A stretch of DNA of 64,000 bases from Giardia intestinalis (lineage: Eukaryota), in NCBI GenBank assembly GCA_000002435.2, contig CM018793.1. One strand, 5' to 3'. The position numbers and the translations under genes are program-made. The notes beneath the pieces were generated by a model. That model saw nothing but the letters and a program-made list of their open reading frames with translations. It searched no databases and was not told where the DNA came from. This document shows, piece after piece, positions 2,174 through 57,696 of the stretch (the stretch's first letter is position 1; every line of letters begins with the position of its first letter).

Positions 2174-5100
2174 ATGCCTTTTGCAGGCTCGGCGCACCCA
2201 CCTATACTACAGCAGAAAGGCCCGGCCAAGCAGAAAATGCAGCGGCCGGAAACTCCCTTGGGAGCAAGCATGGCGCGCCGCACCTGCATGGAAGGCTCTC
2301 TTGTTTATTTGGATAAGTCTACGAACATAAAGAGCATGCAACGCGTCAATCACTCAATCATAATGGCTAACTATACCGTGCTAGAGATCCTCGGACAAGG
2401 ATGCTCTGGGAAAACCTACAAGGTTCTTTTCCAAAGGGACGGACGACTCTATGCAATGAAAAAGAAGCGAAGCGCTACCAGTGAAGACGTCAAGGAAGGC
2501 ATTCTGATCACATCGCTGAAGTGCCCTGTCTGTATACCGTGCTATCTCTGTTGGATAGAGGACAATAGTACGTACTTTGTCACAGACCTAGCTCATTGTA
2601 GTCTCGATAGCATTCTTGACTACTATCATTTTCTTATTGAGGATCTCATCTGGATACTGATGGCAGACATCTCTATGGCTCTGGAGTACATCCACGCTAA
2701 CGGGATTGCACATTGTGATCTAAAGCCAGAGAACATCTTGGTCACCAACAGGATAGATGGGTATAACGTCCCTCCCAAGAATTGTGGAGATAGCTACACC
2801 ATTGACACTAGTATGGACCGCTTAACTCCCATAAACGATCCCAATCTCAAGAGGTCTTACGTAGCACAGCGTGCCGCCGCGTTGGCAAGATCCAAGTCCG
2901 ACAAGGCAAAGGACACATACATTAATAAGAGCCAGAATAAGCCTTTTTCAGTCGCCTCTTCCTCTCATTCTCAGCAAGCTAGTGCAACCAACACTGTTCC
3001 CACAACTGGTGTAGCCAGTGTTGTCAGCACACCAATGCATACCAGTATTGTGAGCACTGCAGTCAATCAAAAACTGTCAGAGGACACCCTTTATCCAATC
3101 GCCTCAGAAAACGTCACGACATCTATGGATCAACTCTCACTTCACACCACCTTTCCTCGCGCGCAAGTTATCCACAGTGATCTCAGGAATTGCATCTTAT
3201 CGACACATAGACAGAGCTTTCCACTTATTATCTCACCATGTTATGAGCGTGCAGCTGACGGAAAATACTTTGTTCGACACAAAAAGGGAGGGTTCCTCCT
3301 CGACAAGATCAACCTGATCAAGAGAAGCTATTCAGATAGCACCCTAGTGGTCCTGAAGCACACAGAAACAATGTTGTCGAATAATTATCCGCGTGAATAC
3401 ATCTTTTGTGAATATGAGGACCAATTTCACAATGAGGTGCAAGATAATTCCCACTTAATCATTCAGCACTTTGAGCTAGGGAGCCCGATGAAGACAAGAT
3501 ACTCCACCCCAATGCATAGGTTCAGTAGCACCTTGAACCAAACTATGGACTGCCAGGCCGTGGACGCAGATGTCGACCAAGGCATGCGTATTCCGCATTT
3601 GGGCATGTCTGAACCTGTCATTAATTTTCACTTCGTCAATATCTCTGAGCGGATAAGTGACACAGAGTGGACACGCTCCTTTGAAAAACCCCAAAGCACA
3701 ATAGAAAACAGCGTGGACTCGGTCGTCTTTTCAAGCAAGCAAGACCTAGAGGTCTTTCGCGTTGAGGAGGAATCCTCGGGAGGGATGAAATCCAACTGTG
3801 TCCCCAATGAGTTAATGCGCCACAGCTCAGTGCTTGCTGTAAGTGCAAAGTCTTTAGAGAAGGCAGATGACGTCATAGAGGATCTAGAAGAATCACTGAC
3901 GGCAACGCAACCCTCTAAGAAAGTGGAGGTCGATCATCTCAGCACTGATGCCACTCTCCAGAATACATCACCAACATCGCAGAGCAACAAAGCAATAACC
4001 TTACTAGCCACATGCAAGCATGATCACACGTGCCATTCTGCCGTTTTCAATTGCAGTGAAGACTCGTCCACAACTAACCCAAAACACGCAACCAAGCTTG
4101 TAAGCCTTCAGAAGGATAAGTCAGTATTGTGTGCTGCATTTCGAAAGCTTCCTCGTAATAACAGCTACCGACTAGCCCTTCTCGCCATGGTCAGTAGGAA
4201 GCCCCTGTACAGTCTGTACTTTAATACCAGATTCCTTTACAGGAGAAGACCTAACCATTGGGCATACTATTTCAACCATTGCAAAAAGCATACCTATCAC
4301 ATAGCAAAGCCATCCTTTCTTCTCTGTAGGAGTGTCAATAGTGTACCAATTAAGCCAAAAACCTTGATGGACGAGATACTATCATTGAGCCATTATGACC
4401 ATAACTCCCAAATACCTACGGTTACCATGCCAGCTCCTCAGGATCAAGAGTCAGTAGACCAAGATTCTCGCGGTATTAAAAGTGCCATAACCATTGGCTT
4501 AGCTAAGAACTTCTTACTAGATAGCTGCTCGTCGTCAGGCCTCTATATTGATGAGAAATCCATCAAGTATGCCAACCACGACTCTTCCAAGTCCAGCATC
4601 TTGTCGAGCCATTTAGAGGGAGACATTTCGCCCAGTATTGAAGCAGATACATTTACAAAGCAGCTATCATCAATTCCTCACCAGTCACGGTGTGCAATGC
4701 TCCCTGCCCCAGCGACTACTGGGCAATGCAGCCATCAGCCTAACTTAGCCATCCAGTACAATTTTGATAGATACCACCACTCTGGAGAGAACCCCAAGGT
4801 GGACACTTTCAGAAAGCGGGGGCACACAATGTATAACTCTAGCAGGCATGCTTTGCAGGCCACTACGTCTCCTCCTAGTAGATCATGCTCCCAAGGCCTA
4901 ACAACCTGGAGCGTATCTCGGCCCACAACCGACCTGTCTCTTTCTTTGCTACTGGAACCTACATCTACCTACGACTCAGCTATAACAGAATATGCACAGT
5001 ACAGAACAAATAACTTTAAAACTAATTCCCGACATAATGAATTGGCAGAGTCATTGAACAAACCAACCTTGCAAGGACAAAAAAGGCAAAATGCATTTCT

Positions 5101-8100
5101 AGGGTCACTCCCTGACGACATGCAGCTCTTTAATCTCTCTCACAGTGCACACTTTCAAAATGGCAGCTTCTCAGGAGACATCCAACCACCGTTCTTTGAA
5201 GATTATAGCTATCCTAATTCGCGATATGCATTTAGTCCCGCACAGGCTTATAAAACCCCGTTCACGAGATCTACTGGCTCTCAAAAGAAGCATGACCCCT
5301 GCATATACGCATCATCAAGCAAAGTCCATCGTCTTTGTAGGCCAAAGGACATGTATGCTGTGCTCGATGTGCATCCTTTTCAACAGATGGGGTTTATGGA
5401 CTCGGATATCTCTTGCTTGCTGCCCCCCTATGGGTATCAATTATATAGGGCAAACAACCTCTTGTCAACATCTATGTGCGGAGATACATATGGAAATCAC
5501 AGTCCAATGAACTTCTTATCATTAGTGCCTTCTACTTCCCACACGCCTGTCAACGTAGTTCCAGTTGCCGTTGATACAGAGCACAGCAGTCCTGAGTCAT
5601 CCTCCTCTAACGAAGGATCCGTACAGCACACTCCCCTACTGACGCCTCGCCAGTTTCCAGTTCTTCCAGGCCCTCCTGACCGAGATGCTAACTGTTCAAA
5701 CTGTTCACAGCCCTCTATCAAGTCTGCCTCTTTTCAGGACAGTATGAAATGCGGTGACCAAACTAAGCAGTCTAATAGACCTATCTTCTCACCAGTGTCC
5801 TCAGATACGTCCCTGAGCAGGTCTTCAGTGATCAATACATGCAATTCTCAGTCAATCCTTCAGAACCTGGTCTTTACCCTTTCCGACTTCGGGCACGCTC
5901 AAGAAGCACCATTCAAGGAAAGTAACACAGGGGATAGTCGATATATATGCCCCCAATTTTTGCGTACGGGAATCCCAGATTACTCAGCAGATGTATATTC
6001 TTTTGGGATGACAATCCTTGAAGTCATGACTAACGTCAACATTCCCCCCAACGGCGAGTCTTTTGAGTGTTTGAGAAGCCACAAAAAAGCCGTATTAGAC
6101 ATGCTGGATGCTAACGTATTTGGGCGGAACTTAAGTGCACAGTTGCACGAGGACGATGCAGCAGGGTCTGACCTTCACAGGTCTTTATCGTTCATTACGC
6201 CGCGCATCACCTACAGTAAAGATCTCTGGCTGGCAATGTTGGATCTCATCGAGCCAGACACGTCTCTACGACCCTCTATTAGGACTTGGCGTAAAAAGTG
6301 GAAAAGTCAGCTGGACCGTATAGACAGAACTAAGCTTTACCAAAAGATAGAGTCTGATCAGCGCGCAGTTGGCCTAATAATGAACGACCGTTTAGCACCG
6401 TCTGCCGTTGATAAGATGAAAGATGCTAGTTCCAAAGATCTTCTTTTCCCGCAGCATACAAGTTTTACCAACGGCGATAGCAGCCATAACCCTTTTCAGT
6501 CCACAGTCTCATCTTGCAAATCCAACGCAGACTTTATCAATACACTGAACTCAACGTATCAATCTAAAGTATATTATAACAAAGACAATCAAATACACCC
6601 CCATTCTATCAATAATTCCACAGCAACTAGCACTAAAATGGTTCCTATTAAATGGTTAGACTCTTGCTTCTGCCAGGACCCCTCGAAGTCTACAAATGCA
6701 ATTTCTTCTATTAACAGACCTGCAGATATGTTAAACACGCGACCACTGAATTATGGAGATCTGCACTGCTCAGCTCACCTTGACACTCAGCTGAACCCCA
6801 GTGACTTGTGCCACGATACGTACAAACACGCTGTCCCGGTTCCTGGGACATATACTTCAATCTGCTCTTGTGATACTCCATGCAATGTTTACGCCAAATC
6901 AAGGAGCAGGAGCCATTGTACTGACTTTCAATCACGGACAGAGTTGCTGGGTCCAGATATAGGAGACGACTATCTGGACTTCGGCTTATCCTATAGGCAA
7001 GAGTCCATGACTCCGACAACCATTGTTATAAACAAACAGCACACAAATACACAGGGCTCTTTACAGCAAGATCATCATCATGTTGTAGGAGCTATGTCGA
7101 TGGGCCCAGCAAAGTCGGTGCACAAATCAGCTCGCTCAGAAGGAGCTGAAACCCCTGCGTCACTTGAGAGGTGCGGCTATCTGTCGCTAAATTGGCACTC
7201 GTCACTAAACGAAGATAGCTTCGAACTGGATCACTCTCAACTGAAGTCGCCGACAAGTGCCCTTCAGAAAGCTCATCAGTCTGCGTTGACATGTGCAGGA
7301 CTCGATGTGGGAGCACTAGACTCGTTTTCCATCCGGGCAGAGTCGGATATGATCCTGCTTGACAATCGCATGCGCGAGGCCCCTTCCGAGATTCAGGTGG
7401 GAGAGCCGTTCCCCATTAGCTTTCAGTCGCATGAGTCCAGCGAGTCCGCGCTTCTTTCCACGGAGCTGCAGCTAAAGGCTCTCGTAGACGACGGGAGTTG
7501 TGAGAACCTGGACGTAGAACCCAAGGATAGTGACCACCTCATAAAGAGCGCCGTGAACACGACTCTCAGCTCTAAGGCACACGCCAGCACACAATCGGTG
7601 GCATTGTTTGCCTCACCTCGCAAACCGGCAGAGCAGACCTCCGCCACTTGCACCTCAGAGAGTCAGATCGACTCTATCCAGAACGACACATTGGCTGTTG
7701 GTAAGCACGTTGCAGTCGGGCAAGCTCACTCTAGTGCTAGTTTCACGTCCAATACGACAGACCGTGGAAAAGCGAACAATCCGACGCAATCCATAGTTAA
7801 CACGCTTCTAAATTCTCCTGTGTCCGGGATCTTCGAACACAGTGATCACAGTGACCTGAGCGTCCATAGTACCAAGAGTAGCAAGAGCTGTAACAGTACG
7901 CTCCACCAAAGCGTAGTGCATCCAAAGAGCTTCGTCAAAAGCTCCCTATCAGATCAGAAGTCCCATCTGGGACAAAAGGATTATGCGAGCACCCAATCAC
8001 TTACATCCAGTTGCGAGAGTGCCCTCAGAAACACTCACTCACTGCCACACATATCTCCACTGTGCTCTTCGTTGAGGTCCGTCATACTCAGCGCTAATCC

Positions 8101-9760
8101 CATTGATGTGGCCGAAACCTCTCCGGAAAGCCAATCGGTGAGCCTTTGCGCAGATGGTATATCCCTTCTGTCCGCACGCCGTGGAAGGGCTATCAGCCAA
8201 ATAACCCGCCGGGAGCTGCAGACCATTGGGGTGAACTCGGCCGTAGACGATAGTACCACGTCTCTGCACGAAAGGCCGGGATACTGTCCGGTTTGCAAGC
8301 TTTTACGTGTTCCTTCGGACTTGCGCCTCACGCAGCGCGCTATGGCCTTGTGCCCCTCTTCCTCTCAGGCTGAAGAGCTTATCCATTACTGTGTGTGTGC
8401 CCAAGCAAGCGCCTTTCCAGATGCAGGAGAGTTCACCCATTCTTATTCAGAGCCTGCATGTACTAACTACAGTAACCACTCTATTGACAAGCTCATTCTT
8501 TCGTGCTACATACAGAAGGACAACTGCGATGCTAATAGCCACGCCCCGTCCCCTCTTCCTCGCGCTGCTCGTAGTGGGGCATCCTTTGGCCCGGGACCCT
8601 TGGTTTCTCAGGAGGATGTTGGCAAGAACAATGACAGAACGGTGTCTGCCAACGATTGTGAGTGTTTACCGAGTCAATTTGTCCTGTCGCACGTATCTGT
8701 ATCGCACCCTTCCTCAACAGTGGGCCCCTGGATGTTACCCTTCAGCAAAACAAGGTCGCTTGTGCTCACTTACACCGAGAGGCTAATAGTTTCTGCGATC
8801 TCGTACCTGTCACTTCGCTCCGGAATATATACCTCAATGCAGGTTCCAAGCGAGGCAGCGGCATCCTGCTTCACGAAATATGAGCAAACGCCAACTGTAA
8901 TCGGATGTAAGACGAACCAGGTACTTTTGTCTAAAGTAGATACGGTCTGCGAGCCTGGTAAAAAGCACTGTTTAGAAGCTGGGAGTGAGGTAAGAGAGAT
9001 TGGCGACGACTCTACTAACTCAGTCGGGAGCTCCGGGGCGGAAAGGGTGCGGTTAGCCTGCAGGCACCGAAGGAGGTCTGCCGGTAACACAGGAAATTTC
9101 AAGGCAGTGGGCTGGGCAGACGATCTGGGTGGAACGGAGGGGCGCACACAAAAGCCCCGCTATAGCACTTTATCTCATTCAAAGTCCGGGATGCTCACAC
9201 GATTGCCATATGCAGAGCTCCAAAGACTTGGATACGTAACTCCACTACCGAAGCAACGAAGGACGCCGGTAAAGTGGAAAAAGCCTAGTAAGGTTTTCTT
9301 ACTTTCTAAGGAAATATCCACCTGCTCGTCTAGAGAGCCGTGCATATCTGTGTGCTCTCTGGCCTTCACGGCGCATGGCGTATTCAACTGTCTGCTGCTT
9401 CTGGACATAGGGCTCATTGACTTTTTTCATACAGCACGCATGTTTCGGTGGATTGGCGTTGTAATTACAATCGTTCTAGCAGGAGTTTTAGCATCTATAT
9501 TGAAGGAGCTCAACACATACCTAGTCTTTGAAGACAAGAGTCCGGGATACGTCTGTGTTCCATATACACGGATATACGTCTCCCCGCGCCAGATCGTGGC
9601 TGTCTGTCTGCGCTTCCTCCTGCCGACAGTTTGCTTTATGGCAACAGGAGTGGGGCTAAGCCTGTACCCACAGTCACGTCTTCTGATGCTTCTGTTGGCT
9701 CTACTCGAGTGTATGTTCGTCGCAAAAATAAGCAAATTCTCAATTCGGAACATTTCGTAG
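2174..9760 (+). CDS. giant (2528 aa) protein kinase with a split catalytic domain, a long Ser/Thr-rich low-complexity region and a C-terminal multi-pass membrane anchor
   Basis: N-terminal Gly-loop LGQGCSGKTYKV, beta3 Lys in LYAMKKK, and catalytic loop IAHCDLKPENILV at nt 2391-2736. The DFG/APE/subdomain IX-XI block (LSDFGHAQ...ICPQFL...DVYSFGMTILEV...RPSI) appears only about 1050 aa later, at nt 5887-6290. The last ~130 aa carry several hydrophobic helices (IGVVITIVLAGVLASIL, LLMLLLALLECMFVA). Confidence 0.8.
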   Translation: MPFAGSAHPPILQQKGPAKQKMQRPETPLGASMARRTCMEGSLVYLDKSTNIKSMQRVNHSIIMANYTVLEILGQGCSGKTYKVLFQRDGRLYAMKKKRSATSEDVKEGILITSLKCPVCIPCYLCWIEDNSTYFVTDLAHCSLDSILDYYHFLIEDLIWILMADISMALEYIHANGIAHCDLKPENILVTNRIDGYNVPPKNCGDSYTIDTSMDRLTPINDPNLKRSYVAQRAAALARSKSDKAKDTYINKSQNKPFSVASSSHSQQASATNTVPTTGVASVVSTPMHTSIVSTAVNQKLSEDTLYPIASENVTTSMDQLSLHTTFPRAQVIHSDLRNCILSTHRQSFPLIISPCYERAADGKYFVRHKKGGFLLDKINLIKRSYSDSTLVVLKHTETMLSNNYPREYIFCEYEDQFHNEVQDNSHLIIQHFELGSPMKTRYSTPMHRFSSTLNQTMDCQAVDADVDQGMRIPHLGMSEPVINFHFVNISERISDTEWTRSFEKPQSTIENSVDSVVFSSKQDLEVFRVEEESSGGMKSNCVPNELMRHSSVLAVSAKSLEKADDVIEDLEESLTATQPSKKVEVDHLSTDATLQNTSPTSQSNKAITLLATCKHDHTCHSAVFNCSEDSSTTNPKHATKLVSLQKDKSVLCAAFRKLPRNNSYRLALLAMVSRKPLYSLYFNTRFLYRRRPNHWAYYFNHCKKHTYHIAKPSFLLCRSVNSVPIKPKTLMDEILSLSHYDHNSQIPTVTMPAPQDQESVDQDSRGIKSAITIGLAKNFLLDSCSSSGLYIDEKSIKYANHDSSKSSILSSHLEGDISPSIEADTFTKQLSSIPHQSRCAMLPAPATTGQCSHQPNLAIQYNFDRYHHSGENPKVDTFRKRGHTMYNSSRHALQATTSPPSRSCSQGLTTWSVSRPTTDLSLSLLLEPTSTYDSAITEYAQYRTNNFKTNSRHNELAESLNKPTLQGQKRQNAFLGSLPDDMQLFNLSHSAHFQNGSFSGDIQPPFFEDYSYPNSRYAFSPAQAYKTPFTRSTGSQKKHDPCIYASSSKVHRLCRPKDMYAVLDVHPFQQMGFMDSDISCLLPPYGYQLYRANNLLSTSMCGDTYGNHSPMNFLSLVPSTSHTPVNVVPVAVDTEHSSPESSSSNEGSVQHTPLLTPRQFPVLPGPPDRDANCSNCSQPSIKSASFQDSMKCGDQTKQSNRPIFSPVSSDTSLSRSSVINTCNSQSILQNLVFTLSDFGHAQEAPFKESNTGDSRYICPQFLRTGIPDYSADVYSFGMTILEVMTNVNIPPNGESFECLRSHKKAVLDMLDANVFGRNLSAQLHEDDAAGSDLHRSLSFITPRITYSKDLWLAMLDLIEPDTSLRPSIRTWRKKWKSQLDRIDRTKLYQKIESDQRAVGLIMNDRLAPSAVDKMKDASSKDLLFPQHTSFTNGDSSHNPFQSTVSSCKSNADFINTLNSTYQSKVYYNKDNQIHPHSINNSTATSTKMVPIKWLDSCFCQDPSKSTNAISSINRPADMLNTRPLNYGDLHCSAHLDTQLNPSDLCHDTYKHAVPVPGTYTSICSCDTPCNVYAKSRSRSHCTDFQSRTELLGPDIGDDYLDFGLSYRQESMTPTTIVINKQHTNTQGSLQQDHHHVVGAMSMGPAKSVHKSARSEGAETPASLERCGYLSLNWHSSLNEDSFELDHSQLKSPTSALQKAHQSALTCAGLDVGALDSFSIRAESDMILLDNRMREAPSEIQVGEPFPISFQSHESSESALLSTELQLKALVDDGSCENLDVEPKDSDHLIKSAVNTTLSSKAHASTQSVALFASPRKPAEQTSATCTSESQIDSIQNDTLAVGKHVAVGQAHSSASFTSNTTDRGKANNPTQSIVNTLLNSPVSGIFEHSDHSDLSVHSTKSSKSCNSTLHQSVVHPKSFVKSSLSDQKSHLGQKDYASTQSLTSSCESALRNTHSLPHISPLCSSLRSVILSANPIDVAETSPESQSVSLCADGISLLSARRGRAISQITRRELQTIGVNSAVDDSTTSLHERPGYCPVCKLLRVPSDLRLTQRAMALCPSSSQAEELIHYCVCAQASAFPDAGEFTHSYSEPACTNYSNHSIDKLILSCYIQKDNCDANSHAPSPLPRAARSGASFGPGPLVSQEDVGKNNDRTVSANDCECLPSQFVLSHVSVSHPSSTVGPWMLPFSKTRSLVLTYTERLIVSAISYLSLRSGIYTSMQVPSEAAASCFTKYEQTPTVIGCKTNQVLLSKVDTVCEPGKKHCLEAGSEVREIGDDSTNSVGSSGAERVRLACRHRRRSAGNTGNFKAVGWADDLGGTEGRTQKPRYSTLSHSKSGMLTRLPYAELQRLGYVTPLPKQRRTPVKWKKPSKVFLLSKEISTCSSREPCISVCSLAFTAHGVFNCLLLLDIGLIDFFHTARMFRWIGVVITIVLAGVLASILKELNTYLVFEDKSPGYVCVPYTRIYVSPRQIVAVCLRFLLPTVCFMATGVGLSLYPQSRLLMLLLALLECMFVAKISKFSIRNIS

Positions 9761-9779: not shown

Positions 9780-10415
9780 ATGCCTGTCAAGCACATCTAC
9801 CTTGTCCGCCATGGAGAGACAGATTTCAACACGGACCCCGAGCCCCGCATCAGAGGCCACGTTCCCAATCCACTGAACGAAATAGGGCGCCTCCATGCCA
9901 AGGAGGCCAGCGCCGCATTGAAGGACGTGAAATTTGATGCCATCTTTTACAGTAGAATTCCCCGTGCCAAGGAAACGGCCGAGGCCATTCGAGCCAATCA
10001 GCCCCAAGCTCGTTTTGAGGAGGAGCCCCTTGTTTGTGATATCTCTTGGGGCGACTGGGAGGGAAAGACGTACCTCGAGGCCTTTGGGACGCCCGAGCGC
10101 GTGCATCTCTTTAAGACAGACCCTGCGCGCCTCGAGATACCAAATGGAGAAAGCTTCTACTCCGTTCTGGCGCGCCTCGAGGCCCTGGTCCACAAGCTTG
10201 AGCGCAGCACCGACGAGACCATCTGCATTGTGTCTCATGGTGCCGTGCTCAACCTTTTCATGTGCTTGATCACCTCCGCCCCGCTGTCGAAGTTTTGGAT
10301 GTTCTATGGCGATGCATGCTCCATTTCGCAAGTGGATATGCACGACCCTTCGACGTTCCACATCCGCTCATACAACGAGACCCGTCACCTGTCTAAGAGT
10401 CTCCCTAGTAAATAG
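9780..10415 (+). CDS. histidine phosphatase superfamily protein (phosphoglycerate-mutase-like branch), 211 aa
   Basis: N-terminal LVRHGETDFN (catalytic RHG motif) and a later SHG-type His (IVSHGAV). It starts 20 bp after the upstream gene's stop. AGTAAAT at 10407..10413 overlaps the stop codon. Confidence 0.8.
   Translation: MPVKHIYLVRHGETDFNTDPEPRIRGHVPNPLNEIGRLHAKEASAALKDVKFDAIFYSRIPRAKETAEAIRANQPQARFEEEPLVCDISWGDWEGKTYLEAFGTPERVHLFKTDPARLEIPNGESFYSVLARLEALVHKLERSTDETICIVSHGAVLNLFMCLITSAPLSKFWMFYGDACSISQVDMHDPSTFHIRSYNETRHLSKSLPSK
10407..10413 (+). terminator. putative polyadenylation signal AGTAAAT overlapping the phosphatase stop codon
   Basis: It matches the AGTRAAY consensus established for Giardia. 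Similar motifs occur at 2032..2038 (AGTAAAC) and 46315..46321 on the minus strand (AGTAAAC). Confidence 0.45.
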
Positions 10416-13123: not shown

Positions 13124-16100
13124 TTACCTACGGGAATTGTTGCGAACACTGCGCACAGCCTCCTGGGCCTGTCTAAGCAATTTGATCATTTCATTGTTGT
13201 TCTTCTTGCAGGCAAGCATCAACGCAGTGTTTCTCTTAGCATCCTGAAGCATGACTTCGTATGGAACTAGCAATCTTGCAGACGTAAGGTTGTTGTTGGA
13301 AACTGCAGCCATCAGTGCCGACCATCCACTAGGTGTCTGCTCCCCTGCTTCGACGGGTGCTAGGATCTCTACGCACTCGTCAAACCCGAAGCGGGCCGCA
13401 AACATCAAGGCGGTGAACCCCTTATTTGTCTTGAGATTTGCTTCGTAGTCTTTCAGTGACTTAACTATCTCAGCTTGGTTGTCTAAAACAGCCATCATCA
13501 TAGCAGACCAACCCTCAGCGTCCTGGAGTCCGCACTCCGTTCCGGCGAGCACTTGGACGCCGATGAGGTTGCAGTTGCGTGCAGCAAACATCAGCGCTGT
13601 ACGGCCCATGTTGGCACGCTTTCCTGCCTCTTCCTTCTGGAGGACAAGCACGATGTCGTTCAGACCGAGCTGCGCCGCCATCATTAGGGCTGTTCTCCCC
13701 TCCGGATCTTGCACGTTGCTCTCTGCATACACCAGTTTTTCGACGCACTCGACTTCATTATTCAGAGTAGCGTACATCATAGCCGTTCTTCCATAACTAT
13801 CACAGAGCTTCGCCTCCTCTTTGATAAGTAAAGGAATTATGCCAGACCTCCCCATGTATGCAGCGATCATCATCGCGCTGACCTTGCTCCTATCCTGGAT
13901 CCCAGCCTCGCACCCAGCAAGCAGTTCCACGCATCCTATTGCGTTGAACTTGATAGCTATCATTAATGCGGTCCAACCATCGTTGGTGACACTGCGCGCT
14001 TCATGGTCCATAAGAAGCCTCACCGCTTCGACACTGTTGTGAAACGCAGCAACCATGAGGGCTGTCCACCCCTCATTAGTTTTTCTACCAGCTTCGCCTG
14101 CCTTTATCAGCAACTTTGCATTGGCAATATCCCCAATGCGAGCAGCAACCATCAAAGCTGTCATATGGGTGTCCGAACATAGGTTTGCCTGTGTCTTCAT
14201 ATTCTGCTTAATAAGCTTCTTGTCTCCATTGTAGATTCCTTGCATAAGGTCTGTATAACTGGGATCAGCTTCAAAGTTCGGGATCTCCAGGATTGTTATG
14301 TCATTTCTTTGGATGTGCCTGCTCAGCGGACCAATGGGCATGGCTGTCTGGGAGGGGTTAAGGCAGAGCGTGTCCTCGTAGCGGTCTGCAGAGGTCGACG
14401 CCCTGAGGTCCACATAGGTTGGTCTAAGATCTACTTCTTCTTTTAGTCGAATGGTTGAAGACCTCATGGACATAGTGGGGGTTTGTAGGCGTGAAGGGGA
14501 TTCTATTTGGTCAACGCTAAAGTCTTCTTGGGGCAATGCATTAGACCTTGCTCTAGGGTTCCTTGACCCCGATTTGCTTCGAGAAAGTGTGCGACTCTTG
14601 GTAACTAAGTTAACATCTCTAGAACTGACGGGGTGAAGAATGCTTGCCGTTAGACTAGATTCCGTCGGGTTGAAATTTTCAGCGGTAGTACTGGGTCCAT
14701 AAAATGTTCCGGAGAGAGGATTGACCTCTGCAAATCTGTTGTTCGTGTTGCTACGAATGGCCTTTATGTTTGATTTATTTAGCGCAGCCATAGTAGATGC
14801 AGACGCCCCGGGTTGCCTTGGCGGGGGTGAAACGTCCTCATAGTAGCGTGCAACCATCGCTTCTTGTAACTGTGGGTCTTTTGTAAGAATATCTGCATCA
14901 AGAGACCGTGGGTGGGTGCCCTGTGGTGGTGTGATAAGTTTCTTCTTCGACGCCTTCTCGATTGCTTCGTACAGAGAGTACTGAGCGTTATCAACGTACG
15001 AAGACCTAGATGCTGTGGGGCTTATGTTCCGCTGCTGGGTAGATGTACCCATCATGCTTGCTTGACCGGGTGTCACGTAGTTGGAGCGTCGAGGGGAAGT
15101 AGTTTGCAGATTGCTCTGCACAAGCGATCTGTTCAGGTTCCTGTTAAGATTACTCGTGTTATATGTGTTGGATAAGAGCGTGCTGCTTGTCAGAGTGCGC
15201 TCCGAGGCCATATTCCTGGTTTCAGCAGTAGAGGTTAGTTTGGTGTTGTCTACCTTGAGCGCTGTCGTGGGAGTGCGCGCCTTTGATACCTTAGCAGTAG
15301 CAGACTTGATAGTCGGCGTTTTGGGGCGCTTTTCGCGTAGTGTTACAGCAGACCCTTTATCCTTGTCTTTTCCCTTTCCGGGACTTCGCCTATTAATGAT
15401 CGAGACGTTCGGCGATAGGTCTAGGCTTGGCTCTACGTACCCAGAGACCTGAAGAGCATCGACAACTCCCGGCTCCGGGACAAATTCTAGCGTCCCCTGG
15501 TGAGGAGCCACAGGAGCCTCACTGCTAGCAGGAGCTGAGCTTGATGAGAGAGCAGGCCGCTGTGTGAGGTGGAGCTCTGCCGGGCGAACATTGTAGATGT
15601 TCGAGTCTTGAAGACCTTGGAGTCCGAGATCCGTCTGCGGAAGAATGTCATCATAGCGATAGTAATCCCTATCCATATCATCCTCCTCAGTCGGCACAGT
15701 GGCCAGGTAGTTTATTTTCCCGTCTCTGATGTATATAGTCAAGGCATGAACACAATCGGCGTGGCTGTTACCAGCTGCTGCAACGAGGGCTGCCTTGGCC
15801 TCCATGTCCGTTATCTCCTGTTTGTATCTTATCAGATAGTTGACGACATTGAGCTTCCCATTGCAGGCTGCATACGTCAAACAGGTGCGGCCTTTGAGGT
15901 CCTTAGTCTTTTCCAGATGGGGCAGCAGCACAGCGACAGACTTAAGCGCTCCCACGCTAGCAGCCAAGATAAGGGCGTCCTCCCCATACCCAAGTCTGTG
16001 GTCACACTCAGAGGGAATTTCGACCAGAAAGGAACATATCTCGGAGTTGTTGTTGAGCGCAGCAATCATCAGCGCATTATGTCCTTCGTTGTTGACAATC

Positions 16101-16282
16101 CCTGCCTCGACAGGGGCCAGCATTTTGGCGAGCTTAATGTCATTAAACTTTGCTGCCTTCATCAGCCCTGTCTCTCCTGCAGCGTCACGAGAACCGTGAA
16201 AGACCCCATCGGCATCATAGATCGCCTCGTAATCCTGGTTTCTGATGGCGTCAAACCAGTCCACCTGTGTCGAGACCTGCAT
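13124..16282 (-). CDS. ankyrin-repeat protein with a bipartite architecture (1052 aa; 'protein 21.1'-like)
   Basis: Ankyrin repeats of the G-TALM-AA type at the N-terminus (about aa 30-200) and C-terminus (about aa 690-1040), for example GWTALMVAAFHNSVEAVRLL and GRTALMMAAQLGLNDIV. A Ser/Thr/Asn-rich low-complexity middle separates them. A strong AT-rich initiator (aaaaattaaaattttaatcATG) precedes the start. Confidence 0.85.
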   Translation of the reverse strand: MQVSTQVDWFDAIRNQDYEAIYDADGVFHGSRDAAGETGLMKAAKFNDIKLAKMLAPVEAGIVNNEGHNALMIAALNNNSEICSFLVEIPSECDHRLGYGEDALILAASVGALKSVAVLLPHLEKTKDLKGRTCLTYAACNGKLNVVNYLIRYKQEITDMEAKAALVAAAGNSHADCVHALTIYIRDGKINYLATVPTEEDDMDRDYYRYDDILPQTDLGLQGLQDSNIYNVRPAELHLTQRPALSSSSAPASSEAPVAPHQGTLEFVPEPGVVDALQVSGYVEPSLDLSPNVSIINRRSPGKGKDKDKGSAVTLREKRPKTPTIKSATAKVSKARTPTTALKVDNTKLTSTAETRNMASERTLTSSTLLSNTYNTSNLNRNLNRSLVQSNLQTTSPRRSNYVTPGQASMMGTSTQQRNISPTASRSSYVDNAQYSLYEAIEKASKKKLITPPQGTHPRSLDADILTKDPQLQEAMVARYYEDVSPPPRQPGASASTMAALNKSNIKAIRSNTNNRFAEVNPLSGTFYGPSTTAENFNPTESSLTASILHPVSSRDVNLVTKSRTLSRSKSGSRNPRARSNALPQEDFSVDQIESPSRLQTPTMSMRSSTIRLKEEVDLRPTYVDLRASTSADRYEDTLCLNPSQTAMPIGPLSRHIQRNDITILEIPNFEADPSYTDLMQGIYNGDKKLIKQNMKTQANLCSDTHMTALMVAARIGDIANAKLLIKAGEAGRKTNEGWTALMVAAFHNSVEAVRLLMDHEARSVTNDGWTALMIAIKFNAIGCVELLAGCEAGIQDRSKVSAMMIAAYMGRSGIIPLLIKEEAKLCDSYGRTAMMYATLNNEVECVEKLVYAESNVQDPEGRTALMMAAQLGLNDIVLVLQKEEAGKRANMGRTALMFAARNCNLIGVQVLAGTECGLQDAEGWSAMMMAVLDNQAEIVKSLKDYEANLKTNKGFTALMFAARFGFDECVEILAPVEAGEQTPSGWSALMAAVSNNNLTSARLLVPYEVMLQDAKRNTALMLACKKNNNEMIKLLRQAQEAVRSVRNNSRR

Positions 16283-20133: not shown

Positions 20134-23100
20134 CTAGTTATTCTCGTCATCTGTAAAAGATATGGATGTGTCTGCATTGCTTGCGGGTATCTGGCTTAGC
20201 GTGCCTGGAAGGTGTCTGGACCTTCGCTGATGCTTGAGGTATCCAGCCGAGCTTTCTCGCGGTAATTCATGGTCTTCGTCCACTGGGCTAGGAGAAAGCA
20301 TACCATGGACTGTTAGCAGTTGTGCTCGTTGCGATTCCGAATGCAAGGGCTGGGCAACTGGCCGTGGAACATTCTTCTTTGAGGGTTCAGCTACCGGCAA
20401 CCGGATGCCCATCTCATGCCTAGGACTCTTTGGTGATTCCCCATACTTGCTTCCATGCGGCTTTGGGGGCAGGCTAGGGCTCTTTTGAAGTGGCCGACCG
20501 TTCATGTCAATAATGTGCACACTTGTCTTCATGTTTATAATACGTTGGTCCGAGACTACTATTGGCTTGGAGTGTACTTTAAGCACCTGGCCGAGTGTGT
20601 ATCGCTTGTTCGGGCACTCTGTATGCTCTCGTTCTTTATGTTCTTCAGACACAACATAGGTGCACTCAAGTTGCATGCGAGCAAGCACGTCGCGAGGAAG
20701 TGCTTTAGCACTCATGGCAGCCAACTCTGACGCAGGTTTCACCGTAGTTATCTGCGGCTTGAGCATGGCACTACCCCTGTCTGCACAAGCTCGTGCAAGC
20801 ATACCTATGCTCATTGTATGCCCTCGCTTCATTGCATACGGTGAAACATGATGTAGCATTCCTTTGCGTGATACGTTAGCTAAGGAGCGACCAAAGCAGG
20901 ATTCACGCTTTAATACGGCATTAGAGTGCGTTGGAGACCCAACCAGCTTGAAATTACTCACGTCCAGGGGAACCGTCTTACGACCAGGGCTTATCCAGAG
21001 AGAGTTTTGGAAGGTTGTCATCTCTCCCTTGGTGAGCTTGTGTGATTGAATGGCGTACAATCCTGTCTTCTCGTGACTTTTCTGTGTGCTGGAGTATCCC
21101 TCCACTTTATGACGCCACCTTAGCAGAGATGATAGGATGTCTGGACCCCCATGTAAGAGATCCGGGGTCTGGCCTCCTTCTCGTAGACCAAAGCCCCGAA
21201 CTATTGGGGTAGCATTCACGTTATACACCTTTTGATGAAGAGCGTTACGCACTGCTCGGGAGAACATCAGCTGGGCATTCTTGCTACACAAATCACGAGT
21301 GCTCTGTGACCGCCGAGACCCGGCAGCTATTTCCCATGCGCTCATCTTCTTTGATTCTATGGATTCACGACATCTTTGTGCTGTGATCATCTTGTTCCCG
21401 TGCGCTAGCTGGATTGCTTTGGAGAGAACCTCAAAGGTTTGCGATAGAACTATGTTGTGGAACTCCTCGTCTGTCATTTTAGCTTCTGGATACGACGCCA
21501 CATATGTATGGTCCTGCTGTGTGTTCCCTGACCCCCACACAGAGAATGGTGTCAGAGCAAACCCTGGATCATCAGGCTCTAGCTGCTTCTTTATCACCGT
21601 CGGGGTTGCTGCCGAATTCTGCATGCTGATTGTTGTAGGGCTACAATAGCTATTAGCCTCGGCACTGAGCGTTGTAAGCTCAACCTTTGTCTGTTCCACC
21701 TGCTTCCTTATCCGTATGTCTGCTTCAATGTCCGTGTACTGCTGCAGCGTTGTTCTGGGTGCTGCCTTAGCAAACTCGCGAATTAACGTATAATCGGTTT
21801 GCCTTTCTTCCTTTGAAGTCTGCTCTGTGCTTAGCTCAAAGAGAGAAGATGTGTTAACAGACATCACGTTGATCATCTCAGAGTATCTATTTGTAATTGG
21901 ATCCGTGAGTAGACACTCCTCTAGCATCCGAATGAGCTCCTGGTTCCTCCGCTGCACAGGAGGAATGTCCTGCTGGTTGCTATCTTCAGAGGACTTGGTC
22001 GAAGATGGTAAATCACCTACTATCATTGAGGGCCGCGAGATCTCTCGCATTGACTGTGTCTGCTCTATCTCTTGATCATCCTGCTGTGCTGTGATAAAGA
22101 TGTTTGCGTCTATTTTTGATACTATATAATCTTTCATATCCTCAATTGGTGGGCGAACGGGCTTGGGAGTAGGTATAGAGGAAGGGTCTGGGTCAGCGTC
22201 CAGCAATACTTTGTCATTCCGGAACATATTAGCTGAGCCAACATACTTTAACCTCTTCGTCCTTCTCCATGCGCTTACATACTCTGCTTTGATATGTGTC
22301 TTATCCATGGTACTCGAGGACTCTGAGGATACAAAAGTGGGGCTCAAGATTGGATTTCGAGAAGCACGATGATACTTAGCAATCATTCGTTTAGTCAGGA
22401 GAGAAGGCTGAAGAGGCTTTGTCGGCGCATTCCACATGGCATTTCCAAGAGTTGCAATCCCCGTGGATGTGTGCACTGCTAACGTAGGCAGGTGTACCCG
22501 CGCTTCTTTCTTCGCAGCAGCCAGATGAATGGATATCGAAGAGCGTCGTTTTGGCTTCTGGATGCTATGTTGTTCGGAGTATCTCATGGCTGGTGAAGAT
22601 GTCACGCGTATGAGCTTTTTCCACTTATATTTTGGCAATGTGGTTGTACCTTTTCCCTGAAGAAGTCCTTCGTTTCTTCGCAGCATCGTGTTTCGTTTGT
22701 AGGCGTCTGCAGATGAGACTGTGCGCTCGCTATTAGAAGCATCTCGAGCCCACCTGCACTCCCTTAAGATTCTATTATAGCATGTAACGTTTAGTTCTCT
22801 TAGTGTAGGATTAGAAAGAGTGCGCTTGTTAGATTCACCTGAGGAAGGTGGCTTTTTGTCATATCTTGTGGTTATCTTACCAATTTTCTTGTTTCTTTGA
22901 AGTATCTGAGGTCTCGACATCTTCTTTGCGCAGCTTCCACCACGGCTCAGAGTGTGCACAGTTGGTAATTCGGTCATATCTAGGCATGCACGATTGCTGG
23001 CTTGATCAGATAAGGGTGAGTCTGGTGGGATAAGATCGCTCACTGATAATGATGGGGATGACGAAGTGATGCTATCCAGATCTATGATAAAGGAGTCACC

Positions 23101-26100
23101 CTCATCCCGCAGAAGGGATTCGCTGCTAGATAAGTTTAGGTCATCAGCCTCTTTGATATACTGGAGCATGGTGCGTTGCTCTTTCCAGTTCCTAGCTTTT
23201 GGGCCGACCATGTCCTGTATCTTTTCCTCAATGTGCTGTAAGCGTGAATATTGATGATTAATCGATAGTTCCGTAACATTCATAGATTCGAATGGTGTAC
23301 TTATCAACCCAGATTGCATCCTAAGTGCAGAGTTATCACTCAAGTCTACTCTGGGGATGATATTGCCCAATTCATCAAGAAGTTTTTGGTGCGCAAGCCG
23401 TGAAACGCTCTTGTTTCCGATGCGTGGAGAGGCCACTCGCATCGAATTGCGTAGCTGCATCTGCCGAGAAATGGTTTTCTCTAAGTCCATAGTCAGCTGA
23501 AGTAATTCTGTAGTTGGTGCTGGCTTCACCAAAAAGTCAAGCTCGTCATCTGATGTGCTTTCTTGCTCTGCAACAGTGACATTTGAAGGAACATATTTCT
23601 GGCCATCCGTAGTAAGACCTTCAATGGTAACGTCTATCGACTCAAGCGCGGGCTCTTGTAGATGTTTAAAGAGGTTAGCAATTCTTTCTTCCGCAGAGTC
23701 GGCTTCTACGTCCACAAATTTTGATTGAATATTCTGAAGAATATCAAGTATCTTGTCAGACGTTGAGAGACGCTCACTGCATTGTTCTAGAATCGGTATA
23801 GATGTGGCCTCATTGATACTACCTTGTTGGATTGCGGATATGGGGGTTCCAGCGAACGATGACGTAACATCTGTGACAGTTTCTAATTGTAGATTAATAG
23901 CTGTGTAGGCAGAAGTGTGCCCATCCTTGGTCGAGTTATCGCTCTGTGCAGAAGCAAACCTTCTAGATGTATTAGAGGCTGGTGATGTCTGCAGTGTATG
24001 CTTTGAGACTTTATTGTTGCCTATCGTCTCCTGACTTGCAGGAAGAGATGATGCCTGTGAAGCAGGCCTTTCCAACCTGAGCTTCTGTGTACTGTTGGGC
24101 CTAACAATTGTAGCAGTCCGTGATGCGCTGTCTGAAGGATTGCACGGTGCACTAGGTGCCCGGCAGAAGCTGTGCTGTAATCGGTTAAGGTCTGTGTTTA
24201 TGCCAACCAATACGTCAGCGACCGGCAGGGGGCTAATCAGTTCAGCATCCTTTAGTGACACTGCGCCAGCTTCAGAGGAATAAGGGCGAGAGCTAATTGA
24301 TTTATGGGGTGATGCAGATGCTATTCTAGACAATTCCTCGTCTATTTGGTGACTTATCTGACGAACTGTCTCGCGAGACCTCAATTGGCTGGAGACAAGA
24401 ACACTGCGAGACGAGCTTTCTCTGTCAGGAGGCAAATCCTGAAAGAATGCTAAAAGAGATGCTTCAGAGGAGTCCTCACCTCGGTCCCGTTCGTGTTGCT
24501 CGGACTGGTTATCTTGAATAGCAACATTGGGTGATTTTGATCGACAAGATTGAGCAGACAATCCCCCGGTGGGTTCAATTTCAAAGCCTGGAGGCAACTC
24601 TGCTAGTACAGGAACCAGTCTGCTCGTAGATGAACTTCGTCGCGGACTAGCATCAGTCTTAGCTACAGTATAATGAGATGATGACTCCCTTGTAACAATT
24701 GGAGGTACCAATATAGGGTTTGTGGGTGCCAGTGGAAAAGCTGGAGCGGACGAAGGATCTGGATCGCTAAGATTGCTGATTGAATAAGCAGGAGAATTCT
24801 CAGAAATAGCGACCTGATACCTACGCCCTAAGAGCTCATGTCTTGTGGATGGTTTAGATGAGGAAGATTCTGGTCGTATTTTGCCCGTGTTTTGAGTAGT
24901 CTGCCTTGCTTGTGCGGGCTCAATGTGCATCTGCTGAGTATCTCCCTGCTTTGTGCTAATTTGCTCAGATGGCAAGATAGGCTCTATAGCTGTGGATTGT
25001 GAGCCCGACTGAAGTGGTGTGTTAATGGAGTGTTTTACAGGCTCACTAAGCTCAAGAGAAAGTAGCCTTTCCTGTGCCCGCTGAATGGAGGCAATATTAT
25101 CATCATAATCCTTGAACGATCCATCGTCAAGGGCATCGAGTGATAGGTACACGTTTTGTGGAGATGCAGAAGGTGTAAAGGAACGTGTGGTAAATACTAC
25201 TTCCGTGTAAAGTAAAGCATTCCTGAGCATAGATCCACTGGGGGCTTGAACAGAAAGCCTGGGATACGTAGGCGCTTCAAGGCTTTGAGGGTGTTCTCCT
25301 TCTACCTGCTTATAGACTTCTATCCGCTCGATCAGCTCTCTGTTTGCGTAATTGATCAGTAAATCTGCAGTCTTTCCAATTTCAAAGTCTTCCAATGTCT
25401 GAAGAGGCTTCTCCTCTAAACCACTAGCCGGTTCTAACAGTAGGGGTTGTGACAGGGCCTTCTTTGGAAATGCTGTCTTGCCCTTACGCTTTTGCTTCCT
25501 CCTGTTCTTATTTTTATGCTGAATGTGAGCCACAATAACCTTGGCTACCGGCTCCTCGGTCTCATTTTCTAGTGTAGCAGATATCTTTACTGTCCCTCCC
25601 GCTTCCAGCGAATCTGTGATAATGGCATTATTCAGAAAGCTATATGGTGCAGCAGACAAGTCAGCAGTGTTCATAAGAAGGAGTCGCAAACAGTCCTTAT
25701 CTATTTGATGACGAAGAAATGTGTCTCCACAGACACGAAAACACTGTAAAGACAAAGAAAGGCTTGCGGCATAGTCTTCATCTATATCGTTGCAGTCCTC
25801 GCTCATCTCAGAGAGGAAAGCTAACGCAGAATCTATACGCTTATACGATGCATAGGTAATCGCTGGATAATTAGTGAATATAAGTGACCGCCTCATTATT
25901 GTATTCTTCATGCAACGACAACGCTGGTCGCAGAAGCAATAGAAGCACAGGCAGCCGCTGCATATATGGCAATATTTATCAGAAGAGGACGAGCTAGTGC
26001 TGCTGCGGGAAAGAGTAGCGGACTCCAGAAGATTTCTGAGACGATGCGGAATAGCTTGTGGGGCAAGAAAGCATTTGCAAAGAGCAGACTTCAAAACTCT

Positions 26101-29100
26101 TGTTTTAGCATCTAAGTCATCGGCCATCTGCATCACCCGTAGCTTAGTTCCTCCTCTGTGGCGGGGGCTATCCAACGCACCAGTCAGCTTTGCCTCCAAT
26201 TTAGTCGTTATCCCAGCAGAAATTTCTGCAGAAACGGCATCTAACAGCCTCTGTAAGAGCAAGCTGTTTGACGCATGGGCATCAAAGAGAAGAAGTTTGT
26301 GTGCAGCTTCTGTTGTTAGCTCGGTTGTATTTTTACTAACATAGCTTCTCTCGCGCTTTAAGCGCTCCATCAAACTACTGGTGTTGCCACTTAGGGTTGT
26401 GTTGTCCAATATCGTCTTTATCATGCTTTGCTTTTCGTTGAACAGTTTGCAGACAGCAATATCCTCTTGGAGCATCTGGGGAACAAGAGCCTCAAGGGGC
26501 TCCGCATGCTGCTCCATGGCTGTGACATCCATCTCTATCGACTGATATTTCTCTAGTAAATCAGCTTCCATTTTGGCCATTGTCTGGAGTTTGTTGTAGT
26601 TCCTGAGAAGCGAGTAGACAGTATCAAGGCCACAGCAGCTCAATATGGAACGAAGATTGCTCATTCTTCTGTCCCATGTAGAAACTTGAAATCTAGGAGC
26701 TAAGTCGGTAGTTTTCTGGCGTGGGAATGATGCATACTTGAAATTCGTATGTAAAATAGCAACACTGGCAAACAATTGCATGGTCTTCAGTCTTGATAAA
26801 CATGTGCCCAGGCTAGATCTCGTGGTCAAATAGCAGGCACTTTCTAACTGTTTAGTTGAGAGGGACAGTATTCTGGAAATAACAGATTTAAAAAGGTGAA
26901 GGTCTAGTTCTGGGATGAAGTCAGAAATGTTGATCATGGACCCGACTGATGGTAAGTGGGTGATCTTGTGCAATAGCGTAAGAAATAGCAAGCTATGTGT
27001 TTTGAAAAATAGAAGGTGCACAAATGAATCAGGAGCTTTCTGAGATACCAATTCATTAAGTGTAGGTTTTGATAAGACTGGGTCGGTATCAGATTGACTT
27101 CTTGCGTCAGAGTGATTGCTGATTGCGCCTGTTAAGAATATGTCTTGGAGTGCATCCTTATCTGTGCGAGTAGCAGTAACGTGAAGTGCATCTCCTTCGA
27201 TATGTTTCTTCTGCTTTGCAAGACGCTCCTTGTTGGCTAAGATGTACGCCTTCCACAGTTGTAAGGAAACCAGCTGCTTATAGATTCTGTCCCCGGCCTG
27301 AAGAAGCAAAGCAAAGCGTAGAAACGACCGCCTTGCCATAGGGCGCTGCTTGAGAACTTGAAAAACCCGGAACTTGAGGCAAAATTCATCGTGGTATGAC
27401 ATGCAGTATGGAACAGGTGTTCCGCGACTACCAGACTTCTTCCGGGGTGGAGGGGCAACCAACCGTTTAATTGAATCGCCTTCTGAGTCACTTTCATCAT
27501 CTGGACGTTGAGTAAGAAAGGTCGAGCCAGCTGCACGGGCCTGTCGAGATCCTATGTGGGCATCAAAGAGGTTACGCAGTTGGCTCTCTTTTCTCTGCAG
27601 CGCTGCCTCTTCTTCCCTTGCTTTTCTATTCTCCAGTGTCTTAGTCGCTACGTCACCAGGGATCATCAAAAAGCCATCATCATCCTCGATGGTACGATAT
27701 CCTACTCTCCCATCTTCAGCAAATGACTCAACAACATATGCTTTCTTGACAATCCGTCGATTGACAGCGTCATAAACGGTGCATCCGTTTATCATCAGGT
27801 AGAGTGTGCATATGAAGAAACTAGCATACCCAGGGCGCGCAGCCAGCGAGGAGGCAGCCATCAGACGGGCAATGTCTTTCGAGAAGCAGTAGTCCTCCCA
27901 TCTGCGCAGATACGTTTGAACCAACGACTTGACCCTGAATTGATTTGCCAGTAGAATCTTGTACCGCTGCAATCGTATCTTATCTATGTACTGCTTCCAG
28001 AGGCCCAAGTACTTAGTCATGAGCTTGTGTCTTCCACGGGCAAGGTCTGACCACCGGTAGAATGCTGTGATTAGAAGCTTATCGTAGGTCAAAAGAAGGA
28101 AAGTCTTCCTGATTCGGAGCATTCTGATTGTTGTTAGCCAGGCTACAAAAATGGGTGAGATGAGAGTGTACTTGAGCAGAGTCAAGCGAATGTACAGGAC
28201 AACCTGCACTCGATACTGAATATCAAAGACAAAGCTGTGTATGAGATACGAAGATCGAGTAGGAACTAACGTCTTTGCTATGTCGTAAAATCTTATTGGC
28301 ATTCCTTTCAGTAATTCTTTGTAGACCGATCGGGGATTATCAGGAGGTAGTTGGAGACTCTGGTAGCCGTTTGCTTGGCCTTCATCACGCTCAATGAATG
28401 CCTTTAGTTGCTTGCGGTAAGTCTTAAGATACTTCATTAGATATAAGAAAAACTGAAAGATGTCATTTGTGACCCTCAGATTGATCCTTTTCGTAAATGT
28501 GACGACGAAGAGGTTGAGCTGCGTGTTGATGCGGGCCCTCTCCTTGAAGCACGCAAAGTACTTGCTCTGTAGAAAGATATTACATAGATACTCCATCTGC
28601 TTGTGTTTGATACAAATCAGCATCTCTGTTCTCCAAGTCGAGAACACCTTACGATGTAGAACATGACGATACATTCTTATTATGAAGGTGTAGACACGCC
28701 AGAGGCGGAAGACGATCCCTGGAATGACCAAAGCCCGGCGGTGGGCCGACTCCAAGAGCCTCAAGATTGCCGCACTGCGCCGGAGCAAGCGGATCTGTCT
28801 CTGCAAAAAGATCACTGACCGGACGCTCTGCTCAGTGATCAGCTCGCTGTGAACGAATGCGTGAATGTCCTCCATATTAACGGGGATTGTCCAATTGTAA
28901 ATGAACGATTGTGGGGGCTTGTAGGACGCCCCCAATATCCTGTTCTTACTCCTGCAATGAGAAAGTATCTCTGAAGTAGAGCTGATAGTGTCAGTTTTAG
29001 AAGTATCACTCAAGGCGGAGGTAGATGGGAGGGTGTTGCGTCTCACCAGTGGAAGGTCTGCAGTGGGCGAGTGGACAAGCAAGGGGCTAGCTATTCCAGT

Positions 29101-57662: not shown

Positions 57663-57696
57663 TTGATCGAACTTTATTGACCCATCCTTCATAGAG
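57663..57696. promoter_or_regulatory. 34-bp bidirectional AT-rich promoter between the Rab11-like gene (-) and the LRR gene (+)
   Basis: The sequence ccgattttttgatcgaactttattgacccatccttcatagag lies between two divergent ATGs. Confidence 0.5.

Follow-up and report, generated by a model that had tools for sequence, protein, structure and literature searches.

The window analysed here, a stretch of 64,000 nucleotides from Giardia intestinalis (assembly GCA_000002435.2, contig CM018793.1), carries close to its start the gene GL50803_115572, which encodes the single WEE-family kinase of Giardia lamblia. The catalytic domain of this protein is interrupted by ~1,040 lineage-specific residues, which alignment places in the beta7-beta8 turn, inside the C-lobe. 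All the catalytic residues are kept (Lys96, Glu108, Asp182, Asn187, and Asp1238), and by its sequence the kinase is a divergent member of the WEE family that stands closer to Myt1/PKMYT1 than to Wee1.

The insert is real, and it has been on record since the kinome catalogue of Manning et al. 2011 (PMC3218828), where the protein is GK074, 'Kinase, Wee', of the class Other / WEE / WEE-Unclassified. Additional file 1 of that work annotates it as 'Active (K,D,D present)' and notes a '~800 insert within kinase domain'. The catalogue understated the insert (~800 residues, as against ~1,040 here), did not give its place in the fold, and went no further than WEE-Unclassified, whereas we find the kinase to be Myt1-like in sequence. 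What is added to it here is the affinity to Myt1, the structural site of the insert, its stepwise growth, the conserved islands within it, and a conserved, putative C-terminal anchor.

A kinase domain in two parts within one reading frame

As is typical of Giardia, the window has a GC content of 49%, and its open reading frames (ORFs) are tightly packed, intronless, and placed on both strands. The kinase ORF and the two parts of its catalytic domain are as follows.

2174..9760, + strand: complete kinase ORF, 2,528 aa and a stop codon, with no internal stop in the ORF listing
2372..2749, + strand: kinase fragment 1, aa 67-192; Pfam Pkinase positions 1-133 (E 3e-20), PKMYT1 residues 31-166
2750..5872, + strand: insert, aa 193-1233, ~1,040 residues, placed by alignment at the turn of the beta7-beta8 hairpin; between Pfam positions 133 and 137
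5873..6283, + strand: kinase fragment 2, aa 1234-1370; Pfam Pkinase positions 137-255 (E 1.7e-6), PKMYT1 residues 186-242

When the whole protein was searched with the Pfam Pkinase profile (PF00069), it scored 92.4 bits, in two stretches, against a gathering cut-off of 31.7 bits. Fragment 1 contains the N-lobe, the hinge, alphaD/alphaE, the catalytic loop, and beta7; fragment 2 contains beta8, DFG, the activation segment, and subdomains IX, X, and XI. The profile positions covered by the two are complementary, and they are therefore two parts of one kinase domain. An earlier note on this DNA had described a single ORF in which a kinase domain is split by about 1,050 residues. This was borne out by the two partial matches of the profile hidden Markov model and by an insert of ~1,038-1,041 residues, and the note had located the parts to within a few bases. 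The block downstream of the insert, with DFG and an APE-like segment, is genuine kinase sequence, as its Pfam and PKMYT1 matches show.

The motifs of the kinase domain were located by a motif scan.

aa 74-81, nt 2393-2416, + strand: G-loop GQGCSGKT (GQGCSG = aa 74-79)
Lys96, + strand: Lys of the AMK motif
Glu108, + strand: Glu of alphaC
Trp127, + strand: Trp of subdomain IV
aa 180-190, nt 2711-2743, + strand: catalytic loop HCDLKPENILV, with Asp182 and Asn187
Asp1238, nt 5885, + strand: LSDFG
aa 1253-1263, + strand: GDSRYICPQFL (TGDSRY = aa 1252-1257)
aa 1273-1284, + strand: subdomain IX, DVYSFGMTILEV (DVYSFG = aa 1273-1278)
F1297 and R1301, + strand: residues of subdomain X
aa 1365-1369, nt 6266-6280, + strand: subdomain XI, LRPSI

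The Lys, the Asp of HxD, the Asn, and the Asp of DFG, which the earlier note had counted as retained, are thus all present (K96, D182, N187, and D1238). From Asp182 to Asp1238 the spacing is 1,056 residues, while it is 18 in 105 of the kinase domains scanned among the other matches. Four diplomonad orthologs with an overall identity of 30-46% show no variation at the H, D, K, N, and DFG positions.

The ORF is a real gene that is translated and under selective constraint. Its N-terminus and its kinase domain with the insert excised are letter-identical to the sequence of GL50803_115572 in Additional file 1 of Manning et al. 2011, and the window therefore belongs to G. lamblia WB. Three independent contigs from Logan (assemblies of public read sets) encode the identical 2,528-aa protein, giving the frame the independent read support that the earlier note had called for, and a fragment from a separate read set (P0002) runs from the last part of the insert to the C-lobe. 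With the ortholog of assemblage B (P0001, 'Kinase, Wee', 2,511 aa, 65% identity) the protein is collinear along its whole length, the only indels between them being short and in frame. The chance that 1,041 codons would stay open is ~2e-22, and the 3' motif of Giardia introns, CTRACMCACAG, was not found within the ORF. It may be noted that a histidine-phosphatase (phosphoglycerate-mutase-like) ORF that starts MPVKHIYLVRHGETDFN lies directly 3' of the kinase gene (window ~9780-10415, + strand). A His_Phos_1 gene (211 aa) is also next after the kinase ortholog in assemblage B and on a Logan contig, so that local synteny is kept.

In a study of 2023 (PMC10100927), GL50803_115572 was named 'WEE kinase' and was a candidate CDK substrate. 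The Discussion of the same paper gives the membrane-associated Cdc2-inhibitory kinase homolog as GL50803_15572, beside a Cdc25 homolog; this is apparently a typing slip for GL50803_115572, which is cited correctly elsewhere in that paper.

Place, content, and growth of the insert

In the alignment with PKMYT1, the insert junction falls opposite 'GPRGR' of human Myt1, the turn between beta7 and beta8 in the C-lobe. The two strands form an antiparallel hairpin; therefore the ends of the insert adjoin, and the core would be able to take up a normal Myt1-like kinase fold. Whatever its length, a loop can exit and re-enter at this turn. The claim of the earlier note that two lobes must assemble across the insert was not upheld: the break lies inside the C-lobe, and fragment 1 already holds the N-lobe through beta7. 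Since the insert ends are adjacent strands of a hairpin, assembly from lobe to lobe across the loop is unnecessary.

Such a core was seen in the predicted structure of an ortholog. For the ortholog from Spironucleus salmonicida, AlphaFold2 with an alignment of 61 sequences gave predicted local distance difference test (pLDDT) values of ~90 on either side of the insert and <50 within it, beta7 being at 177-181 and beta8 at 289-293 of a closed core. The top 30 structural matches of this model in the PDB were all PKMYT1. For the window protein itself (aa 181-1380, two-sequence alignment), the mean pLDDT was 27 and the kinase C-lobe was <50, and the model was uninformative on order or disorder in the insert.

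Ser (14%), Thr, Pro, and Asn are abundant in the insert. No Pfam family was matched at E<=1 by the 939 residues scanned from between the kinase fragments, and self-comparison revealed no internal repeats. An NCBIfam scan returned generic kinase fragments only. Compared with assemblage B, the proportion of nonsynonymous differences (pN) in the insert is 0.208 and that of synonymous differences (pS) is 0.743; synonymous sites between assemblages A and B are saturated (pS ~0.7-0.85). As pN is well below pS, the insert is translated and constrained by purifying selection, more loosely than the kinase fragments, for which pN between A and B is the lowest in the protein (0.054-0.062). Three stretches stand out.

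2744..2842, + strand: proximal conserved segment of the insert, aa 191-223, TNRIDGYNVPPKNCGDSYTIDTSMDRLTPINDP, near-invariant between assemblages A and B
3209..3493, + strand: conserved island in the insert, aa 346-440, pN 0.057, 78-92% identity to assemblage B
5174..5473, + strand: second, weaker island in the insert, aa 1001-1100, pN 0.115, 72-82% identity to assemblage B

In hydrophobic content all three resemble the kinase lobes. For aa 193-240 the pN is 0.11, and the first residues of the proximal segment (T-N/H-R..G-Y/F-N) are common to the Giardia-like ortholog P0016 (see below). In aa 346-440 the fraction of order-promoting residues is 0.38, and an alternating hydrophobic pattern suggests that this stretch may be a small folded module. 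When the conserved islands and the transmembrane (TM) region were searched against Pfam, there was no match at E<=10, apart from a non-significant one to YnfU (E 0.22) for aa 2001-2100 of the C-terminal tail. The earlier note had proposed a huge disordered, Ser/Thr/Asn-rich loop; the insert is neither uniformly disordered nor unconstrained, aa 346-440 being as conserved between assemblages A and B as the core.

The same site carries inserts of differing lengths in the orthologs. The comparison of insert length with related species, which the earlier note had suggested, gave the following series.

Spironucleus salmonicida 'Kinase, WEE' (EST42346.1 / V6LF79; P0045): Asp-to-DFG spacing 124, ~106 extra residues
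Giardia-like P0016 (Logan SRR31929897; 52% identity over the matched stretches): Asp-to-DFG spacing 599, ~581 extra residues
G. intestinalis assemblage B: Asp-to-DFG spacing 1,014, ~996 extra residues
Window kinase (assemblage A): Asp-to-DFG spacing 1,056, ~1,038 extra residues

The insert of the window kinase could not be aligned with those of P0016 and Spironucleus, and the inserts of these lineages do not align with one another. As far as these sequences go, the insertion site is conserved while the content of the insert turns over and grows, and we infer that the insert originated among the diplomonads and then grew from ~106 through ~581 to ~1,000-1,040 residues. The Spironucleus protein resembles the Giardia one in the site of its insert, between beta7 and beta8, and in the hydrophobic segments at its very C-terminus, but it is only 807 aa long. 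P0016 (1,394 aa) is encoded at 6001-10185 of contig L002, in a locus of 49% GC, and beyond its stop codon lies a small-GTPase gene in convergent orientation. A word-indexed search for homologs yielded the assemblage B ortholog, one fragment, and nothing else; when the spliced domain or the four-species profile served as the query, the matches were generic kinases, with no named G. muris ortholog among them.

In Greatwall/MASTL and in yeast Rim15 the kinase domain is divided by a middle region of ~500 non-conserved residues. Both are active as single chains, and crystal structures came from fusions with the insert deleted; 5LOH was among the structure-database matches of the window kinase. The catalytic domain of the Giardia kinase is likewise broken by hundreds of poorly conserved residues, and Greatwall/Rim15 are the closest analogue of its working mode. 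The Greatwall insert, however, comes after DFG (subdomains VII-VIII) in an AGC kinase, whereas that of Giardia precedes DFG (subdomains VIb-VII), is twice as long, and sits in a WEE-family kinase. Assignment to the Greatwall type of split kinase was rejected on these grounds, i.e., the position of the insert before DFG and a family that is WEE and not AGC.

Large disordered inserts that bisect kinase domains are common in Giardia and Plasmodium according to a re-annotation of 2025 (PMC12538575), in the examples of which the domain boundaries are ~650 residues. Most reported inserts of Giardia kinases (Neks, core kinases) differ from the present one in that they lie in the activation loop or are much shorter. 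Our literature search found no comparable inserts between subdomains VIb and VII.

Affinity to Myt1 and the C-terminal tail

Among solved structures, PKMYT1 was the top match of the window kinase with 67 bits, again in two stretches (query 63-190 and 1245-1302), and Wee1 scored 37-39 bits. A profile of four diplomonad species made free of the insert matched PKMYT1 in one continuous stretch with 100.7 bits; the next family scored 86.6 bits and Wee1-like 2 scored 68 bits. When 1.84 billion representatives were searched, the best continuous matches outside Giardia included the Myt1 of Branchiostoma (amphioxus) and a 'WEE protein kinase' of Thecamonas, and the signature [ED]GDxx[YF] was present in 58 among the matches listed. 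The signature residues of the WEE family, which include an EGD triplet in subdomain VIII, have been described (PMC3818516). W127 (subdomain IV) and R1301 (subdomain X) of this signature are present in the window kinase.

With human PKMYT1 (PDB 3P1A), the membrane-associated cdc2-inhibitory kinase with specificity for Tyr and Thr, the Giardia kinase shares the GDxRY activation motif, the Trp of subdomain IV, and the Arg of subdomain X. Hydrophobic sequence lies C-terminal to the kinase in both, that of Giardia being a putative membrane element. The Giardia kinase differs in three respects. The beta7-beta8 turn has 5 residues (GPRGR) in PKMYT1 and ~1,040 residues in Giardia; the EGD and the Trp of PKMYT1 are replaced by TGD and Phe in Giardia; and the membrane motif of PKMYT1 comes straight after the kinase domain, while the four helices of the Giardia protein are predicted ~1,000 residues downstream. 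The region beyond the kinase domain is composed as follows.

6284..9343, + strand: Ser-rich tail, ~1,020 residues, with conserved islands at aa 2001-2100 and 2201-2250; no Pfam family
9344..9736, + strand: four TM-like segments, aa 2391-2415, 2426-2444, 2474-2492, and 2503-2521, with Kyte-Doolittle 19-residue means of 1.7-2.25

From their hydropathy, the C-terminal segments of GL50803_115572 are probably a membrane anchor. Hydrophobic C-terminal segments recur in assemblage B, and the Spironucleus WEE kinase has three at its extreme C-terminus; in a BLAST comparison, aa 2384-2486 of the window kinase gave a weak match to Spironucleus 682-774 (E 0.005). The Thecamonas WEE ends in two hydrophobic segments, and a hydrophobic segment follows the kinase domain in 17 of the 42 relatives that carry the Wee signature. 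The earlier note had presented an unusual, membrane-tethered kinase. The hydrophobic C-terminus is there, but a tether is not unusual, as Myt1 is membrane-associated and so many relatives have such a segment; membrane tethering is, to judge from these sequences, a trait of the Myt1 branch.

The tail island at aa 2001-2100 (window 8174-8473, + strand) has a pN of 0.094 and 82% identity to assemblage B. It contains the pattern CPVC...CPSS...HYCVC, a possible small metal-binding motif.

Probable mode of action, alternatives, and neighbouring genes

We consider it likely that GL50803_115572 is a Myt1-like kinase with a folded core, a projecting insert, and a membrane tether, which restrains mitosis via CDK1. 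The core would fold as in Myt1, and the insert, mostly of low complexity with a few conserved modules, would project from the beta7-beta8 turn. The four C-terminal helices would hold the protein on an endomembrane, in the way that Myt1 is held by its membrane-association motif. The inhibitory site that WEE-family kinases phosphorylate on CDK1 is Tyr15, to which Myt1 adds Thr14. Such phosphorylation of CDK1 in Giardia, which is predicted from family membership, would then restrain mitotic entry, and a Cdc25 homolog would oppose it; a Cdc25 homolog is present in Giardia (PMC10100927). The insert and the tail would most likely be regulatory or docking surfaces and not part of catalysis.

A number of observations weigh against this reading. 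The searched literature, including PMC10100927, holds no experiments on GL50803_115572, and its activity, substrate, and location are all inferred. As regards the family, T1252-G1253-D1254 stands in place of the EGD triplet, with G-D-x-R-Y kept, and subdomain X has Phe (F1297) instead of Trp, a substitution also reported for T. brucei Wee1. The Glu of EGD is replaced by Thr in three Giardia-type sequences and by Cys in Spironucleus; by these sequences the motif is degenerate, not absent. As regards the fold, closure of the core is seen only in the predicted model of the Spironucleus ortholog, and the alignment behind that model consists of Wee/Myt1 sequences, so that the model leans to that fold. 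As regards the anchor, the hydrophobic cluster lies ~1,000 residues from the kinase domain, unlike that of animal Myt1, and P0016 has no hydrophobic C-terminus and nothing alignable to the ~1,100-residue tail of the window kinase; therefore the lineage can do without the anchor. The few TM segments predicted among Giardia kinases were moreover regarded as compatible with false positives (PMC3218828). As regards control by CDKs, [ST]P sites are not enriched in the insert (16 against 14.3 expected). The motifs [ST]Px[KR] and S[ST]P are not enriched in it either, and the reading of the insert as a docking site for CDK or Polo is so far without support.

It is conceivable, if rather doubtful, that the insert is more than a tolerated low-complexity expansion and carries Giardia-specific functional modules (chiefly aa 346-440, but also 191-223 and 1001-1100) which would lie near the ATP site and DFG and could gate activity or dock the kinase to structures peculiar to the parasite. 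Were this so, the modules would give Giardia, which is binucleate and has few classical checkpoint components, its own control of mitotic entry.

If the excursion beside DFG blocked a productive active site, the protein would be a catalytically dead, membrane-bound scaffold. The degenerate EGD (TGD) and the Phe for Trp in subdomain X would fit such a scaffold, as would the many dead kinases of Giardia, one of them at window 32640-33605, and the fact that the assumed activity is drawn from sequence features. Yet the catalytic residues have stayed invariant in the four diplomonad orthologs in spite of their low overall identity, the kinase fragments are under the strongest constraint in the protein (pN ~0.055), the point of insertion is a surface hairpin turn, and the Spironucleus ortholog models as a closed kinase. 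We therefore regard a dead scaffold, the chief rival reading, as unlikely.

Less likely still, and in our view quite improbable, is post-translational processing, in which cleavage within the insert would leave two chains that re-associate, or excision of the insert would yield a shorter kinase. The size of the insert, its low complexity, and its lack of an AlphaFold structure would suit this idea, none of them being direct evidence. The insert, however, has no intein/Hint or protease domains, its conserved islands argue that it stays in the mature protein, and other split kinases such as Greatwall function as single chains.

An artefact, be it misassembly, a gene fusion by sequencing error, or a spliced intron, has a negligible probability and was set aside, given the identical ORF in three independent assemblies, the same architecture in assemblage B, P0016, and Spironucleus, Pfam pieces that are complementary and not redundant, the open-frame chance of ~2e-22, and the constraint on the insert. 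An intein or a spliceosomal intron was likewise rejected, as there is no Hint/intein domain and no 3' intron motif in the ORF, the reading frame stays open, and pN is much lower than pS.

The preferred reading, that of an active Myt1-like kinase, leaves the current understanding of kinases unchanged, and the protein is not a new kind of system. GL50803_115572 is, however, the only WEE-family kinase in a minimal and deeply divergent kinome, and CDK1 of this major human parasite presumably has no other brake. The tolerance of ~1,040 extra residues shows the plasticity of the beta7-beta8 position in the kinase fold, and the series 106 -> 581 -> ~1,040 illustrates cleanly how an insert can lengthen step by step. 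The insert and its islands would be parasite-specific surfaces near the ATP pocket and may interest groups that target Giardia kinases.

Besides the kinase gene, the window holds several other ORFs of note. The protein of 321 aa at 32640-33605 (+ strand) has a kinase fold (Pfam Pkinase, E 1.8e-33), but reads HRYISPE at the catalytic loop and LDNFEI at DFG, and is thus without the catalytic Asp and the DFG Asp. By its sequence it resembles the many dead kinases of Giardia; that it is of Nek-type origin is a guess on our part. The largest ORF of the window, at 20134-29286 (- strand), has 3,050 aa and matched no Pfam family at E<=0.001. GTPases of the Ras/Rab family are encoded at 31737-32561 (+ strand) and 57004-57819 (- strand); the first of these matched the Ras profile in two stretches, best from residue 115, and may be extended at its N-terminus or carry an insertion inside the domain. 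An ankyrin-repeat protein of 1,052 aa and of the Giardia 'protein 21.1' type (13124-16282, - strand), a DNA topoisomerase II (46375-50850, - strand), and a cysteine protease of the OTU family (41670-42656, + strand) look like ordinary Giardia genes.

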